Source: Escherichia coli (GTDB lineage Bacteria; Pseudomonadota; Gammaproteobacteria; Enterobacterales; Enterobacteriaceae). From it: a stretch of 64,000 bases of DNA. Both the position numbers and the translations under genes were made by a program. The first letter of the stretch is position 1. Every line of letters begins with the position of its first letter. Shown one piece after another: positions 1 through 56,187 of the stretch. Under the pieces are notes generated by a model. The model did not search any database and had not been told where the DNA came from. It saw only the letters and a list, made by a program, of their open reading frames with translations. The DNA is taken from the NCBI RefSeq assembly GCF_003334335.1, contig NZ_QOWQ01000011.1; one strand, given 5' to 3'.

Positions 1-488
1 GGGCAACCGTCCTCGACCATAGCGGTGCGCCACTGGATGAAAAACAGAAAATGGGCACCGTGGGGGCCGTGGCGTTGGATTTAGACGGCAATTTGGCGGC
101 AGCCACGTCCACAGGCGGAATGACCAATAAATTACCCGGACGAGTTGGCGATAGTCCCTTAGTGGGTGCCGGATGCTACGCCAATAACGCCAGTGTGGCG
201 GTTTCTTGTACCGGCACGGGCGAAGTCTTCATCCGCGCGCTGGCGGCATATGACATCGCCGCGTTAATGGATTACGGCGGATTAAGTCTCGCGGAAGCCT
301 GCGAGCGGGTAGTAATGGAAAAACTCCCTGCGCTTGGCGGTAGCGGTGGCTTAATCGCTATCGACCATGAAGGGAATGTCGCGCTACCGTTTAACACCGA
401 AGGAATGTATCGCGCCTGGGGCTACGCAGGCGATACGCCAACCACCGGTATCTACCGTGAAAAAGGGGACACCGTTGCCACACAGTGA
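1..488 (+). CDS. iaaA: Isoaspartyl dipeptidase / L-asparaginase, C-terminal part (5' end lies outside the window)
   Basis: Open frame from the window edge to TGA at 486..488; translation has the Ntn-hydrolase asparaginase-like stretch ([23 protein letters not shown]); sits immediately upstream of gsiA as in K-12. Confidence 0.85.
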
Positions 489-2346
489 TGAACTTGATGC
501 CGGTAATGTGCTGGCGGTTGAAAATCTGAATATTGCCTTTATGCAGGACCAGCAGAAAATAGCTGCGGTCCGCAATCTCTCTTTTAGTCTGCAACGCGGT
601 GAGACGCTGGCAATTGTTGGCGAATCCGGCTCCGGTAAGTCAGTGACTGCGTTGGCATTGATGCGCCTGTTGGAACAGGCGGGCGGTTTAGTACAGTGCG
701 ATAAAATGCTGTTGCAGCGGCGCAGTCGCGAAGTGATTGAACTTAGCGAGCAGAACGCTGCACAAATGCGCCATGTTCGCGGTGCGGATATGGCGATGAT
801 ATTTCAGGAGCCGATGACATCGCTGAACCCGGTATTTACTGTGGGTGAACAGATTGCCGAATCAATTCGTCTGCATCAGAACGCCAGTCGTGAAGAAGCG
901 ATGGTCGAGGCGAAGCGGATGCTGGATCAGGTACGCATTCCTGAGGCACAAACCATTCTTTCACGTTATCCGCATCAACTCTCTGGCGGGATGCGCCAGC
1001 GAGTGATGATTGCGATGGCGCTGTCATGCCGCCCGGCGGTGCTGATTGCCGATGAGCCAACCACCGCGCTGGATGTCACTATTCAGGCGCAGATCCTGCA
1101 ATTAATCAAAGTATTGCAAAAAGAGATGTCGATGGGCGTTATCTTTATCACTCACGATATGGGCGTGGTGGCAGAGATTGCCGATCGGGTACTGGTGATG
1201 TATCAGGGCGAGGCGGTGGAAACGGGTACCGTCGAACAGATTTTTCATGCACCGCAACATCCTTACACCCGTGCGCTGTTAGCTGCTGTTCCGCAACTTG
1301 GTGCGATGAAAGGGTTAGATTATCCCCGACGTTTCCCGTTGATATCGCTTGAACATCCAGCGAAACAGGCCCCCCCCATCGAGCAGAAAACGGTGGTGGA
1401 TGGCGAACCTGTTTTACGAGTGCGTAATCTTGTCACCCGTTTCCCTTTGCGCAGCGGTTTGTTGAATCGCGTAACGCGGGAAGTGCATGCCGTTGAGAAA
1501 GTCAGTTTTGATCTCTGGCCTGGCGAAACGCTATCGCTGGTGGGCGAGTCTGGCAGCGGTAAATCCACTACCGGGCGGGCGTTGCTGCGCCTGGTCGAAT
1601 CGCAGGGCGGCGAAATTATCTTTAACGGTCAGCGAATCGATACCTTGTCACCCGGCAAACTTCAGGCATTACGCCGGGATATTCAGTTTATTTTTCAGGA
1701 CCCTTACGCTTCGCTGGACCCACGTCAGACCATCGGTGATTCGATTATCGAACCGCTGCGTGTACACGGTTTATTGCCAGGTAAAGACGCGGCTGCACGC
1801 GTTGCGTGGTTGCTGGAGCGCGTGGGCCTGTTACCTGAACATGCCTGGCGTTACCCGCATGAGTTTTCCGGCGGTCAGCGCCAGCGCATCTGCATTGCTC
1901 GCGCGTTGGCATTGAATCCAAAAGTGATCATTGCCGACGAAGCCGTTTCGGCGCTGGATGTTTCTATTCGCGGGCAGATTATCAACTTGTTGCTCGATCT
2001 CCAGCGTGATTTCGGCATTGCGTATCTGTTTATCTCCCACGATATGGCGGTGGTAGAGCGGATTAGTCATCGTGTGGCGGTGATGTATCTCGGGCAAATT
2101 GTTGAAATTGGTCCACGGCGCGCGGTCTTCGAAAACCCGCAGCATCCTTATACGCGTAAATTACTGGCGGCAGTTCCGGTCGCTGAACCGTCCCGACAAC
2201 GACCGCAGCGTGTACTGCTGTCGGACGATCTTCCCAGCAATATTCATCTGCGTGGCGAAGAGGTGGCAGCCGTCTCGTTGCAATGCGTCGGGCCGGGGCA
2301 TTACGTCGCACAACCACAATCAGAATACGCATTCATGCGTAGATAA
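475..2346 (+). CDS. gsiA: Glutathione ABC importer ATP-binding subunit with two tandem ABC domains
   Basis: 623-aa product beginning (M)PHSDELDAG from a TTG at 475; two Walker A motifs (GESGSGKS twice) and two LSGG signatures; overlaps the iaaA 3' end by 14 nt. Confidence 0.9.
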
Positions 2347-2365
2347 CATTCAGGCGGAGAATAAA

Positions 2366-3903
2366 ATGGCAAGAGCTGTACACCGTAGTGGGTTAGTGGC
2401 GCTGGGCATTGCGACAGCGTTGATGGCATCTTGTGCATTCGCTGCCAAAGATGTGGTGGTGGCGGTAGGATCGAATTTCACCACGCTCGATCCGTATGAC
2501 GCAAATGACACGTTATCTCAGCCGTAGCGAAATCGTTTTACCAGGGGCTGTTCGGTCTGGATAAAGAGATGAAACTGAAAAACGTGCTGGCGGAGAGTTA
2601 TACCGTTTCCGATGACGGCATTACTTACACCGTGAAATTGCGGGAAGGCATTAAATTCCAGGATGGCACCGATTTCAACGCCGCGGCGGTGAAAGCGAAT
2701 CTGGACCGGGCCAGCGATCCGGCGAATCATCTTAAACGCTATAACCTGTATAAGAATATTGCTAAAACGGAAGCGATCGATCCGACAACGGTAAAGATTA
2801 CCCTCAAACAGCCGTTCTCAGCGTTTATTAATATTCTTGCCCATCCGGCGACCGCGATGATTTCACCGGCAGCGCTGGAAAAATATGGCAAGGAGATTGG
2901 TTTTTATCCGGTGGGAACCGGACCGTATGAACTGGATACCTGGAATCAGACCGATTTTGTGAAGGTGAAAAAATTCGCGGGTTACTGGCAGCCAGGATTG
3001 CCCAAACTGGACAGCATAACCTGGCGTCCGGTGGCGGATAACAACACCCGCGCGGCAATGCTGCAAACCGGTGAAGCGCAGTTTGCTTTCCCCATTCCTT
3101 ACGAGCAGGCCACACTGCTGGAGAAAAACAAAAATATCGAGTTGATGGCCAGTCCGTCAATTATGCAGCGTTATATCAGTATGAACGTGACGCAAAAGCC
3201 GTTCGATAACCCGAAGGTCCGTGAGGCGCTGAATTACGCCATTAACCGTCCGGCGCTGGTGAAAGTTGCCTTTGCGGGCTATGCAACGCCAGCTACTGGT
3301 GTGGTACCGCCAAGTATCGCCTACGCGCAAAGTTATAAACCGTGGCCTTACGATCCAGTGAAAGCGCGCGAATTACTGAAAGAGGCGGGATATCCCAACG
3401 GTTTCAGTACCACGCTGTGGTCGTCACATAACCACAGCACCGCGCAGAAAGTGCTGCAATTTACCCAGCAGCAGTTAGCGCAGGTCGGGATTAAAGCCCA
3501 GGTGACTGCGATGGATGCCGGACAGCGGGCGGCAGAAGTTGAAGGTAAAGGGCAAAAAGAGAGCGGCGTGCGGATGTTCTACACTGGCTGGTCGGCTTCA
3601 ACCGGCGAAGCGGACTGGGCACTATCGCCGCTGTTTGCCTCGCAGAACTGGCCACCGACGCTGTTTAATACCGCGTTTTACAGCAATAAACAGGTGGATG
3701 ACTTCCTGGCTCAGGCACTGAAAACTAATGATCCGGCGGAAAAGACCCGCTTATATAAGGCGGCGCAGGATATCATCTGGCAAGAATCGCCGTGGATCCC
3801 GCTGGTGGTAGAAAAACTGGTGTCGGCACACAGTAAAAACCTGACCGGTTTTTGGATCATGCCAGACACCGGCTTCAGCTTTGAAGACGCGGATTTGCAA
3901 TAA
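2366..3903 (+). pseudogene. gsiB: Glutathione-binding periplasmic protein gene disrupted by a 1-bp deletion
   Basis: ATG at 2366 with GGAG 8 nt upstream; signal-peptide N-terminus [26 protein letters not shown]; frame ends at TAG 2525..2527 after ...DTLSQP; the rest of the protein continues in the -1 frame (ORF 2569..3903). Restoring one G after 2521 gives continuous [23 protein letters not shown]. Confidence 0.8.
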
Positions 3904-53304: not shown

Positions 53305-55247
53305 CGCCTTTGCTCGAATTAAAGGATATTCGTCGCAGCTATCCTGCCGGTGATGAGCAGGTTGAGGTGCTGAAGGGCATCAGCCTCGATATTTATGCGG
53401 GTGAGATGGTCGCGATTGTTGGCGCTTCGGGTTCCGGTAAATCGACCCTGATGAATATTCTCGGCTGTCTGGATAAGGCCACCAGCGGCACCTATCGCGT
53501 CGCCGGTCAGGATGTTGCCACGCTGGACGCCGATGCGCTGGCGCAACTGCGCCGCGAGCATTTCGGCTTTATTTTCCAGCGTTACCATTTGCTTTCGCAT
53601 TTAACCGCCGAGCAGAACGTTGAAGTACCCGCCGTCTATGCTGGTCTTGAGCGGAAACAGCGACTGCTTCGTGCCCAGGAGTTGCTGCAACGGCTGGGGC
53701 TGGAAGACCGTACAGAGTATTATCCGGCACAGCTTTCGGGTGGTCAGCAACAGCGCGTCAGCATCGCGCGGGCATTGATGAACGGTGGTCAGGTAATTCT
53801 TGCCGATGAACCAACCGGCGCACTGGACAGCCATTCTGGCGAAGAGGTGATGGCGATCCTGCATCAGCTGCGCGATCGTGGGCATACGGTGATTATCGTC
53901 ACCCACGATCCGCAGGTCGCTGCTCAGGCCGAGCGGGTGATCGAAATTCGCGACGGCGAAATTGTGCGCAATCCTCCCGCCATTGAAAAAGTGAATGTTA
54001 CTGGCGGGACGGAACCTGTTGTCAACACGGTGTCTGGCTGGCGGCAGTTTGTCAGCGGTTTTAACGAGGCGCTGACGATGGCATGGCGGGCGCTGGCAGC
54101 GAATAAAATGCGTACTTTACTGACCATGCTGGGGATTATTATCGGTATTGCGTCGGTGGTTTCCATTGTCGTGGTGGGTGACGCCGCCAAACAAATGGTG
54201 CTGGCGGATATTCGTTCTATTGGTACGAATACTATTGATGTCTATCCCGGGAAAGATTTTGGCGATGACGATCCGCAATATCAGCAGGCGCTGAAGTACG
54301 ACGACTTAATCGCCATCCAAAAACAACCGTGGGTCGCCTCAGCCACACCTGCCGTCTCGCAAAACCTGCGCCTGCGTTATAACAATGTTGATGTTGCTGC
54401 CAGTGCCAATGGCGTGAGCGGCGATTATTTTAATGTCTATGGCATGACCTTCAGTGAAGGAAACACCTTTAATCAGGAGCAGCTGAACGGTCGTGCGCAG
54501 GTCGTGGTTCTCGACAGTAATACTCGCCGCCAGCTTTTCCCCCATAAAGCAGATGTGGTTGGCGAGGTGATTCTGGTCGGCAATATGCCCGCCAGAGTCA
54601 TTGGTGTGGCGGAAGAAAAACAGTCGATGTTTGGTAGCAGTAAAGTGCTGCGTGTCTGGCTACCTTACAGCACGATGTCCGGGCGAGTTATGGGCCAGTC
54701 GTGGCTTAACTCCATTACTGTCAGGGTGAAAGAAGGATTTGACAGCGCCGAGGCGGAACAGCAACTCACGCGTTTACTTTCACTGCGCCACGGAAAGAAG
54801 GATTTCTTTACCTGGAACATGGACGGCGTCTTGAAAACTGTTGAAAAGACCACACGTACTTTACAACTGTTTCTGACGCTGGTGGCGGTGATTTCGCTGG
54901 TGGTGGGCGGTATTGGTGTAATGAATATTATGCTGGTGTCAGTGACCGAGCGGACGCGGGAAATTGGCATTCGCATGGCTGTAGGTGCGCGAGCAAGCGA
55001 TGTTTTGCAACAGTTCCTGATCGAAGCCGTACTGGTTTGCCTGGTCGGTGGCGCGTTGGGAATAACACTGTCACTGTTAATTGCTTTCACCTTGCAGCTT
55101 TTCTTACCCGGCTGGGAGATTGGTTTTTCACCGTTGGCGCTGCTGCTGGCGTTTCTCTGCTCGACGGTCACCGGGATTTTATTTGGCTGGTTACCCGCAC
55201 GAAATGCGGCACGACTGGATCCAGTAGATGCTCTGGCACGAGAGTAA
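53301..55247 (+). CDS. macB: Macrolide efflux ABC transporter (fused ATPase and permease)
   Basis: 648-aa ORF, Walker [19 protein letters not shown]-terminal FtsX-like membrane domain; ATGA overlap with macA. Confidence 0.95.
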
Positions 55248-55257
55248 TTTTTGAGAT

Positions 55258-55287
55258 AAAAATGCCAGCCGATCGGGCTGGCATTTT
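55258..55287. terminator. Hairpin between convergent macB and cspD
   Basis: aaaatgccagcc / ggctggcatttt stem flanked by A- and T-runs. Confidence 0.55.
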
Positions 55288-55319
55288 GCCTTTAGGATGT
55301 ACACAATGAGACAGAAGAG

Positions 55320-55544
55320 CTATGCGACTGCCGCTTCTACTTCGACGGGCACAATAACACTGGCGTGATTGCCTTTTGGCCCCTGGTGGACATCAAACTG
55401 AACGGATTGTCCAGCTTTTAGCGTTCTGTAACCATCCATCTGAATGGTGGAATAATGAGCGAAAATATCTTCGCCGCCGCCTTCAGGGCAGATGAAACCA
55501 AACCCTTTGGCATTGTTGAACCACTTAACAGTACCCTTTTCCAT
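55320..55544 (-). CDS. cspD: Cold-shock-domain protein CspD (stationary phase, replication inhibitor)
   Basis: 74-aa product from ATG 55544 (MEKGTVKWFNNAKGFGFI...), RNP1/RNP2 cold-shock motifs. Confidence 0.93.
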   Translation of the reverse strand: MEKGTVKWFNNAKGFGFICPEGGGEDIFAHYSTIQMDGYRTLKAGQSVQFDVHQGPKGNHASVIVPVEVEAAVA

Positions 55545-55866
55545 GCTTCGACATCCTTCGCAAATCTTATACAAGTAAGATGGAATAAACCGGGGTCAGA
55601 GAGGGGGCTGTTCAAAACCTCGCCAACTCTAGAAATACAATTTAGAGAATTAGGGCGAGCCGTCAAGCATTTGACAGGGGACAAGGGGCAGGTATGAATC
55701 AAAAATTTGAAGCAGTTAACGCTATTGACAGGAATGTGACAGATGTCGCTGATGCCAACGATAGATGATAGTTATCTATCATGTGGAGTAGATTGGTCAG
55801 GCAAATAAGCTCTTGTCAGCGGCAGGGCGTTCTGCCGATAACCGTAACCGAAGATGATAACTGACA

Positions 55867-56187
55867 ATGGGTAAAACGAACGACTGGCTGGACTTTGATC
55901 AACTGGCGGAAGAAAAAGTTCGCGACGCGCTAAAACCGCCATCTATGTATAAAGTGATATTAGTCAATGATGATTACACTCCGATGGAGTTTGTTATTGA
56001 CGTGTTACAAAAATTCTTTTCTTATGATGTAGAACGTGCAACGCAATTGATGCTCGCTGTTCACTACCAGGGGAAGGCCATTTGCGGAGTCTTTACCGCC
56101 GAGGTTGCAGAAACCAAAGTGGCGATGGTGAACAAGTACGCGAGGGAGAATGAGCATCCATTGCTGTGTACGCTAGAAAAAGCCTGA
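55867..56187 (+). CDS. clpS: ClpA adaptor protein ClpS (N-end rule)
   Basis: 106-aa ORF ([18 protein letters not shown]...). Confidence 0.93.

Follow-up and report, generated by a model that had tools for sequence, protein, structure and literature searches.

A dyad between cspD and clpS of Escherichia coli that is very probably the unoccupied attachment site of a PICI

The window analysed here is a stretch of 64,000 nucleotides of Escherichia coli DNA (contig NZ_QOWQ01000011.1), in which macB (+ strand, ending at 55247), cspD (−), clpS (+) and clpA (+) follow one another in the E. coli K-12 arrangement. The cspD–clpS spacer (321–322 bp) is 100% identical to that of MG1655 (Table 1). A preliminary description of this spacer had singled out, about 90 bp 5' of clpS, two direct GATAG copies followed by an inverted CTATC, with an inner palindrome tgatag-ttat-ctatca at 55766–55781. 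Direct reading of the window together with an inverted-repeat search bears this out: positions 55760–55782 read GATAGATGATAGTTATCTATCAT, the direct GATAG copies begin at 55760 and 55767, and the dyad lies upstream of the clpS ATG (55867), with its start 107 bp and its end 85 bp away from it. The inner palindrome is real and extends by one further base pair per arm, comprising ATGATAG (55765–71) and CTATCAT (55776–82), perfectly complementary and separated by a 4-nt gap. Overlapping with it is a second perfect inverted repeat, GATAGAT (55760–66) and ATCTATC (55774–80), with a 7-nt gap. The exact pattern TGATAGNNNNCTATCA occurs only once in the window.

Table 1. Features of the cspD–clpS spacer and its borders, in window coordinates.
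Feature	Position	Strand	Basis or remark
cspD, divergent, left of att site	55320..55544	−	annotation
cspD promoter TTGACG / TAAATT	55666-61 / 55644-39	−	promoter scan; TSS 55630
yljB, 24-aa small protein	55694..55768	+	RefSeq annotation, MG1655 and all genomes inspected
Putative left core-type site B, GATAGAT (ATAGAT conserved)	55760..55766	no strand	inverted repeat with 55774-80
17-bp block ATAGATGATAGTTATCT	55761..55777	no strand	conserved 8-11/11 per column, Enterobacteriaceae
Identity/crossover block ATGATAGTTAT, published PICI att core	55765..55775	no strand	identical in attB, attL, attR, attP
Inner palindrome, extended, ATGATAG-TTAT-CTATCAT	55765..55782	no strand	inverted-repeat search
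Putative 7-bp overlap, GATAGTT	55767..55773	no strand	inside 11-bp block, inverted repeats either side
Putative right core-type site B', ATCTATC	55774..55780	no strand	attL has ATTTATC (attP version), attR ATCTATC
Candidate clpS -10 TAGATT, with -35 ATGATA (55765-70), 18 bp	55789..55794	+	8/12, hypothetical; conserved GTAGATT
clpS, ClpA adaptor, right of att site	55867..56187	+	annotation

The preliminary description had overlooked that a small gene, yljB, ends inside the dyad, where the first GATAGATGA is its terminus. The codons that close yljB, GAT AGA TGA, supply the first GATAG copy and the start of the palindrome, and the TGA (55766–68) is followed by an in-frame TAG, which places tandem stops within the dyad. 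Only E. coli, E. albertii and Enterobacter sp. BIGb0383 possess an intact ORF with a start codon; in other genera the corresponding region is conserved DNA read in another frame. Within this region lies a 26-bp block, AAAATTTGAAGCAGTTAACGCTATTG (55702–55727), that is near-invariant across Enterobacterales and out to Photorhabdus, while the remainder of the spacer is far less conserved. Relative to the cspD TSS, the block spans about −72 to −97; it presumably overlaps CRP site I of cspD, and its level of conservation suggests that a further constraint may act on the DNA itself.

For cspD, the TSS was mapped to 921,899 in NC_000913.2, which is window position 55630 (Kim 2012), and to −86 (Mendoza-Vargas 2009); the start at 55630 in both papers agrees with the predicted TTGACG/TAAATT promoter. 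The Rfam model of the cspA thermoregulator gives a sub-threshold match over the cspD mRNA (55256–55649, −; 41.6 bits, gathering score 78, E = 4.6e-9), which is explained by the paralogy of cspA and cspD. Close to clpS, 26 bp upstream of its ATG, the octamer GCCGATAA (55834–55841, +) is a perfect match to the sigma28 (FliA) −10 consensus. It lacks a matching −35 and is not conserved in other genera, and the resemblance is probably due to chance.

Taken alone, the dyad is real, yet statistically unexceptional. Counting only perfect inverted repeats with arms of at least 7 and gaps of 0–10, the window holds 83, compared with 52.5 ± 9.3 expected from first-order Markov simulations. A nested pair of inverted repeats is found once, namely the dyad itself, and the simulations average 1.4. 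Inverted repeats of such a size are thus too common for statistics alone to be informative on the dyad.

We searched 5,426 complete E. coli genomes with the cspD–clpS spacer as query. It was found in 5,425 of these, contiguous in 5,057 and interrupted in about 369, so that in ~7% of the 5,426 genomes the site is occupied, between yljB/cspD and clpS. The interrupted spacers break at query position 236/237 (window 55781/2) and the second piece restarts at 55765, or at 55761 when a 75-bp query is used. Eight interrupted genomes were inspected (09-00049, Ecol_224, E6474, O157:H7 M1300706002, IHE3034, 90-3040, SCU-172 (attR side) and STEC2018-607), and in all eight the island opens with a tyrosine integrase directly after the dyad and co-oriented with clpS. 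An integrase at least 80% identical to it is present in about 380 genomes, which is consistent with the ~369 interrupted sites. The yljB ORF is intact at attL in the occupied genomes. In the PICI-bearing reference strain IHE3034 (L090), clpA, which lies directly downstream of the island, carries a frameshift in the annotation; this may be a coincidence or a sequencing error.

In 09-00049 the insertion measures 10,631 bp, and all its genes are co-oriented with clpS: a tyrosine integrase, an HTH regulator, an Icd-like protein, a DUF4222 protein, a primase and SSB, together with a major capsid protein, a head decoration protein and a small terminase. The inserted element fits the description of a PICI, as judged from the RefSeq annotation of three islands (L083, L084 and L090) and from PF05930 AlpA in relatives. 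A PICI is ~8–15 kb long, carries int at its left end, an AlpA-type regulator and a primase/replication module, is transcribed unidirectionally and contains no tail or lysis module; the islands agree with this, and one variant, L084, carries a tail-assembly gene fragment. The three islands share the same integrase and att site and differ in their morphogenesis modules: in some cspD–clpS islands these comprise a major capsid protein, a head decoration protein and a small terminase, and in another a prohead-protease/capsid fusion together with a tail-assembly protein and a DUF1441 protein. For the cspD–clpS islands, modular exchange behind a constant int–att module is indicated.

In 09-00049, attL reads ...CGATAG ATGATAGTTATtTATCAg ttagtgttcg... 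and attR reads ...gctataa ATGATAGTTATCTATCAT GTGGAG..., where attB is ...CGATAG ATGATAGTTATCTATCAT GTGGAG...; the IHE3034 junctions follow the same pattern, and the core common to attL and attR is ATGATAGTTAT(C/T)TATCA. The corresponding attP, ...GCTATAA ATGATAGTTATTTATCAT CTAGTG..., is found in a circular record of 10,790 bp, whose sequence opens precisely at the core, and is also contiguous in the metagenomic viral contig L099. The circular record (NZ_CP148328.1, L084) had been deposited as plasmid pZ1323HEC0475-3 and is a PICI circle mislabelled as a plasmid. The chromosome of the same strain (NZ_CP148326.1) ends at the att core, and the circle is either the captured excised form or an assembly artefact.

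Two polymorphisms flank the identity block ATGATAGTTAT, G/A at 55764 and C/T at 55776, and they segregate between the junctions as B-O-P' and P-O-B' would require. In every junction examined, attL keeps G55764, which is A in attP, and attR keeps C55776, which is T in attP; the crossover must therefore fall within ATGATAGTTAT. From 55761 to 55782, attP matches attB at 20 of the 22 positions.

Comparison of attB (ATAGAT-GATAGTT-ATCTAT) with attP (ATAAAT-GATAGTT-ATTTAT) reveals a perfect 6-bp inverted repeat in each, with the half-sites distinguished at a single symmetric position pair, G..C in attB and A..T in attP. The inner palindrome, by contrast, is degraded in attP (ATGATAG with TTATCAT or TTATCAG, 6/7 or 5/7 complementary), and hence is probably not the architecture that the integrase reads. 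Judged from these sequences, the architecture is most likely ATA(G/A)AT – GATAGTT – AT(C/T)TAT, that is, the outer dyad rather than the inner one. In lambda-family systems, inverted core-type half-sites flank a 7-bp overlap, and arm-type sites in attP are bound by the N-terminal domain of the integrase. Based on the one symmetric difference between attB and attP, we infer a lambda-type core of half-sites around the overlap GATAGTT, with the length of 7 bp following the lambda-family precedent.

In the integrase encoded by the island, a domain search finds N-terminal arm-binding, central and catalytic domains (PF13356 Arm-DNA-bind_3, E = 5e-16; PF00589, E = 7e-17; and a weaker PF22022), and the motifs GCRTTE, HDIRHT and TAH..VYNH, which hold the R, H-x-x-R, H and Y residues, are seen in the translation. 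The attP looks typical of the arm type: its arms contain seven co-oriented KTGTTCG repeats with 10-bp phasing, located at −128, −118, −108, +21, +31, +94 and +104 relative to the core in L084, where ~0.1 would be expected by chance. Likewise, tandem GGTGTAGTYAAT pairs are found on both attP arms (L084, region −128 to +149). Altogether, the site resembles lambda-family att sites in its inverted 6–7-bp half-sites around 7 bp identical in attB and attP, in the arm-DNA-binding domain of its integrase and in the phased direct repeats on both attP arms. It differs in that its sequence is unrelated to lambda att, its integrase belongs to the P4/genomic-island type (PF13356) and is not a lambda Int, and the half-sites are deduced from sequence. 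Furthermore, the target is an intergenic regulatory region, whereas many PF13356-type integrases use a tRNA gene. Table S1 of Fillol-Salom 2018 (PMC6092414) assigns the sequence GGTGTAGTYAAT to EcCIDI14 as its 'att core', located in an IS110 transposase; this entry may represent an arm repeat and not the true core.

We thus propose that the integrase would pair the attP of the island (GCTATAAAT GATAGTT ATTTATCA) with the chromosomal site (CGATAGAT GATAGTT ATCTATCA), and that the two-fold symmetry would reflect two integrase protomers bound to the core-type half-sites that flank the overlap in inverted orientation. Strand exchange within the common ATGATAGTTAT would then place the ~10–11 kb island between yljB/cspD and clpS, leaving a near-identical copy of the site at each junction. 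Given the similarity of attP to attB, integration rebuilds nearly the whole block beside clpS (attR) and keeps yljB intact (attL), while it cuts clpS off from all sequence upstream of 55761.

The choice of site tracks the integrase lineage, and specificity shifts between roughly 80% and 90% identity. Integrases at least 90% identical are always located at cspD–clpS; relatives ~79% identical are found at roxA/pepT (EcCICFT073-type site) or at tqsA (EcCI042), variants 78–82% identical at pntB–tqsA, and a Citrobacter group 52% identical at a different locus. The variants at pntB–tqsA, both from E. coli (L137 and L138; P0003 and P0006), may be chimeras of two integrase lineages, and if so would be useful for mapping the determinants of specificity. 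The elements EcCICFT073 (ycfD–phoQ, GGACATATTT) and EcCI042 (tqsA, ATAACAGCA) have related integrases (74–79%) and the same layout int-alpA-...-pri, but their core sequences and chromosomal positions differ from those of the cspD–clpS site. Integrases at least 78% identical to the cspD–clpS type were found only in E. coli. In phage records no integrase exceeds 46% identity to this type, which fits an att site unused by prophages.

That the dyad is a PICI attachment site is already known, having been published in 2018. Fillol-Salom et al. 2018 (ISME J, PMC6092414) classed EcCIIHE3034 as a PICI, and Table S1 of that paper lists EcCIIHE3034 (NC_017628.1:920272-930825, 10.5 kb) and EcCI18098 with the att core ATGATAGTTAT and the att gene cspD–clpS. 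The 11-bp identity block that we derived independently (window 55765–55775) is this published core. Sequence, location and element family are the same, and our re-derived IHE3034 junctions match Table S1; the window differs in that its site is empty, and the paper gives the 11-bp core only. The function of int and att was assayed there for another PICI only (Fillol-Salom 2018, PMC6092414). The same study reports that E. coli PICIs use eight attC sites, as attB is called in the PICI literature, that are never used by prophages, and that PICIs carry virulence regulators (rdgR, Table S1); several PICI attC sites are common to capsid-forming PICIs (cf-PICI preprint). The present analysis adds the ~7% occupancy, the attP arm repeats, the 20/22 similarity of attB and attP, the model of a dyad around a 7-bp overlap and the conserved host block described below. 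With this in mind, we regard the dyad as very probably the attB of a PICI, unoccupied in the genome from which the window derives. The proposal that the dyad is the binding site of a dimeric regulator therefore holds as far as a two-fold-symmetric protein-recognition site is concerned; the evidence points to the attB of a mobile-element tyrosine integrase rather than to a regulator of clpS or cspD.

An attachment site may at the same time serve the host, and conservation is a reason to consider this. We aligned 18 Enterobacterales spacers and computed a column profile over 11 Enterobacteriaceae sequences. Conservation across enterobacterial clpS upstream regions had been proposed as a check on the dyad, and it yields a divided answer: the 17-bp block ATAGATGATAGTTATCT is kept across Enterobacteriaceae, but T55779, the base that makes the palindrome perfect, occurs in only 2 of the 11 aligned sequences, those of E. 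coli and E. albertii. The block takes in the left arm and centre of the dyad and the initial bases of the right arm, an arm that is only partly conserved; it is preceded by a conserved GATGnCA (55751–57) and followed by CAT, TG and GTAGATT (55788–94). The aligned spacers of Serratia, Yersinia, Rahnella and Photorhabdus show no conservation of the block. Use by satellites was rejected as the cause of conservation elsewhere, at least for this integrase clade, whose members with at least 78% identity were found only in E. coli. A coding constraint from yljB was rejected as well, as the ORF is not conserved and the block runs past its stop codon. The attB role thus leaves unexplained the conservation in genera where the integrase clade was not found, so that a host role in addition is possible, and a cis function of the block at 55761–77 in the host appears plausible from the alignment.

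Such a host cis-regulatory element could be the operator of a dimeric transcription factor, the −35 or upstream part of a clpS(A) promoter, or both, and it would be compatible with the attB role. We consider it a serious possibility, albeit one with the balance of probability against it. ATAGATGATAGTTATCT, which the conserved GTAGATT follows, is about as well conserved as the CRP-like TGTGA..TCGC site nearby, and the integrase clade that uses the cspD–clpS site was found only in E. coli. Moreover, ATGATA–18 bp–TAGATT is the only sigma70-like pair upstream of clpS, although as a promoter match it is weak (8/12, under the scan threshold of 9/12). Enterobacter asburiae (L006) lacks ~60 bp between GTAGATT and the clpS ATG (aligned ~55810–55860) and retains the block, as expected if the sequence downstream of GTAGATT is only leader. 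In Salmonella, sigma-factor binding is seen at clpS/clpA, with none by RpoH or RpoS, which implies sigma70.

Against a promoter in this place, neither the map of Kim 2012 nor that of Mendoza-Vargas 2009 contains a clpS TSS near the block. The latter lists a clpS RACE primer and reports no clpS TSS, and the portion of the Kim 2012 data available to us holds no Klebsiella clpS TSS entry. The sole + strand TSS that Kim 2012 assigned upstream of clpS corresponds to window 55314, far upstream, the others being internal clpA starts. This start (NC_000913.2 921,583; 368 reads), assigned to clpS with a 553-nt leader, lies just past the macB terminator and antisense to the whole of cspD (Kim 2012). Its transcript may act as an antisense RNA against the cspD toxin gene, or it may be a long leader of clpS/yljB.

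An operator fares no better by comparison with known motifs. The dyad resembles the operators of dimeric regulators (FNR TTGAT-N4-ATCAA, CRP, Fur box) in being AT-rich and located in a divergent promoter region. However, it scores 8/10 for FNR, for which 49 equal or better sites exist in the window, and 6/10 for CRP, 11/19 for Fur, 7/8 for an OxyR half-site and 6/6 for ATA-N9-TAT (LysR-type), each again with many equal or better sites in the window. These matches do not rise above the window background, that is, they are at chance level, and a site for any of these known regulators was rejected; nor does any TSS set the dyad at an activating or repressing position. Resemblances to sigma-E, sigma-32 and sigma-28 promoters and to a DnaA box, judged by eye, lack the second element or are not conserved. 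The centre of the dyad lies ~30 bp beyond the distal CRP-like site of cspD, whose CRP sites are said to lie at −83.5 and −112.5, and a third CRP site for cspD was rejected, since the dyad (6/10) lacks the critical G/C of TGTGA/TCACA. Finally, the poor conservation of T55779 speaks against a host operator with perfect symmetry, and a poorly targeted literature search found no ChIP or SELEX record on the cspD–clpS spacer.

Altogether, one specific form of a host role, in which ATAGATGATAGTTATCT with its flanking GATGnCA and GTAGATT would be an undescribed clpS–clpA control element (a −35/upstream promoter region or a regulator's operator) that a PICI integrase adopted as its target, remains tentative and, in our estimate, rather unlikely. 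If true, the integrase would have evolved to target ATAGATGATAGTTATCT because it is invariant, and the attP, by mimicking it at 20 of 22 positions, would regenerate the element beside clpS upon integration.

Far less probable is an RNA element, in which the palindrome would fold as a hairpin in the yljB/clpS leader and terminate or stabilise the transcript. The predicted MFE structure does include a 7-bp hairpin and yljB ends inside it; yet at −12.8 kcal/mol it is hardly distinguished from shuffled sequences (z = −1.74, with 15 of 200 shuffles folding as well), it lacks a U-tract, and neither a terminator call nor an Rfam family match was obtained at the dyad. In addition, the stem pairing is lost in other genera, where A55768 stands opposite an A at the position of 55779. 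Least credible of all is a chance palindrome without function, which could appeal to the 83 perfect 7-bp inverted repeats in the window, a number close to random expectation, but is already contradicted by the occupancy data, with hundreds of independent genomes carrying an island exactly here with a duplicated core, and also by the publication of the site as an att site and its conservation across genera.

In summary, by its very probable role as the attB of a PICI, a motif that looks like an orphan operator gains a concrete and documented function as the place where phage satellites in competition with helper phages insert. This implies for annotation work that pan-genome occupancy should be consulted before a small intergenic dyad is labelled as a regulator site. 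For the host, insertion of the island moves ~220 bp of upstream sequence away from clpS, among it yljB and the CRP-like sites.
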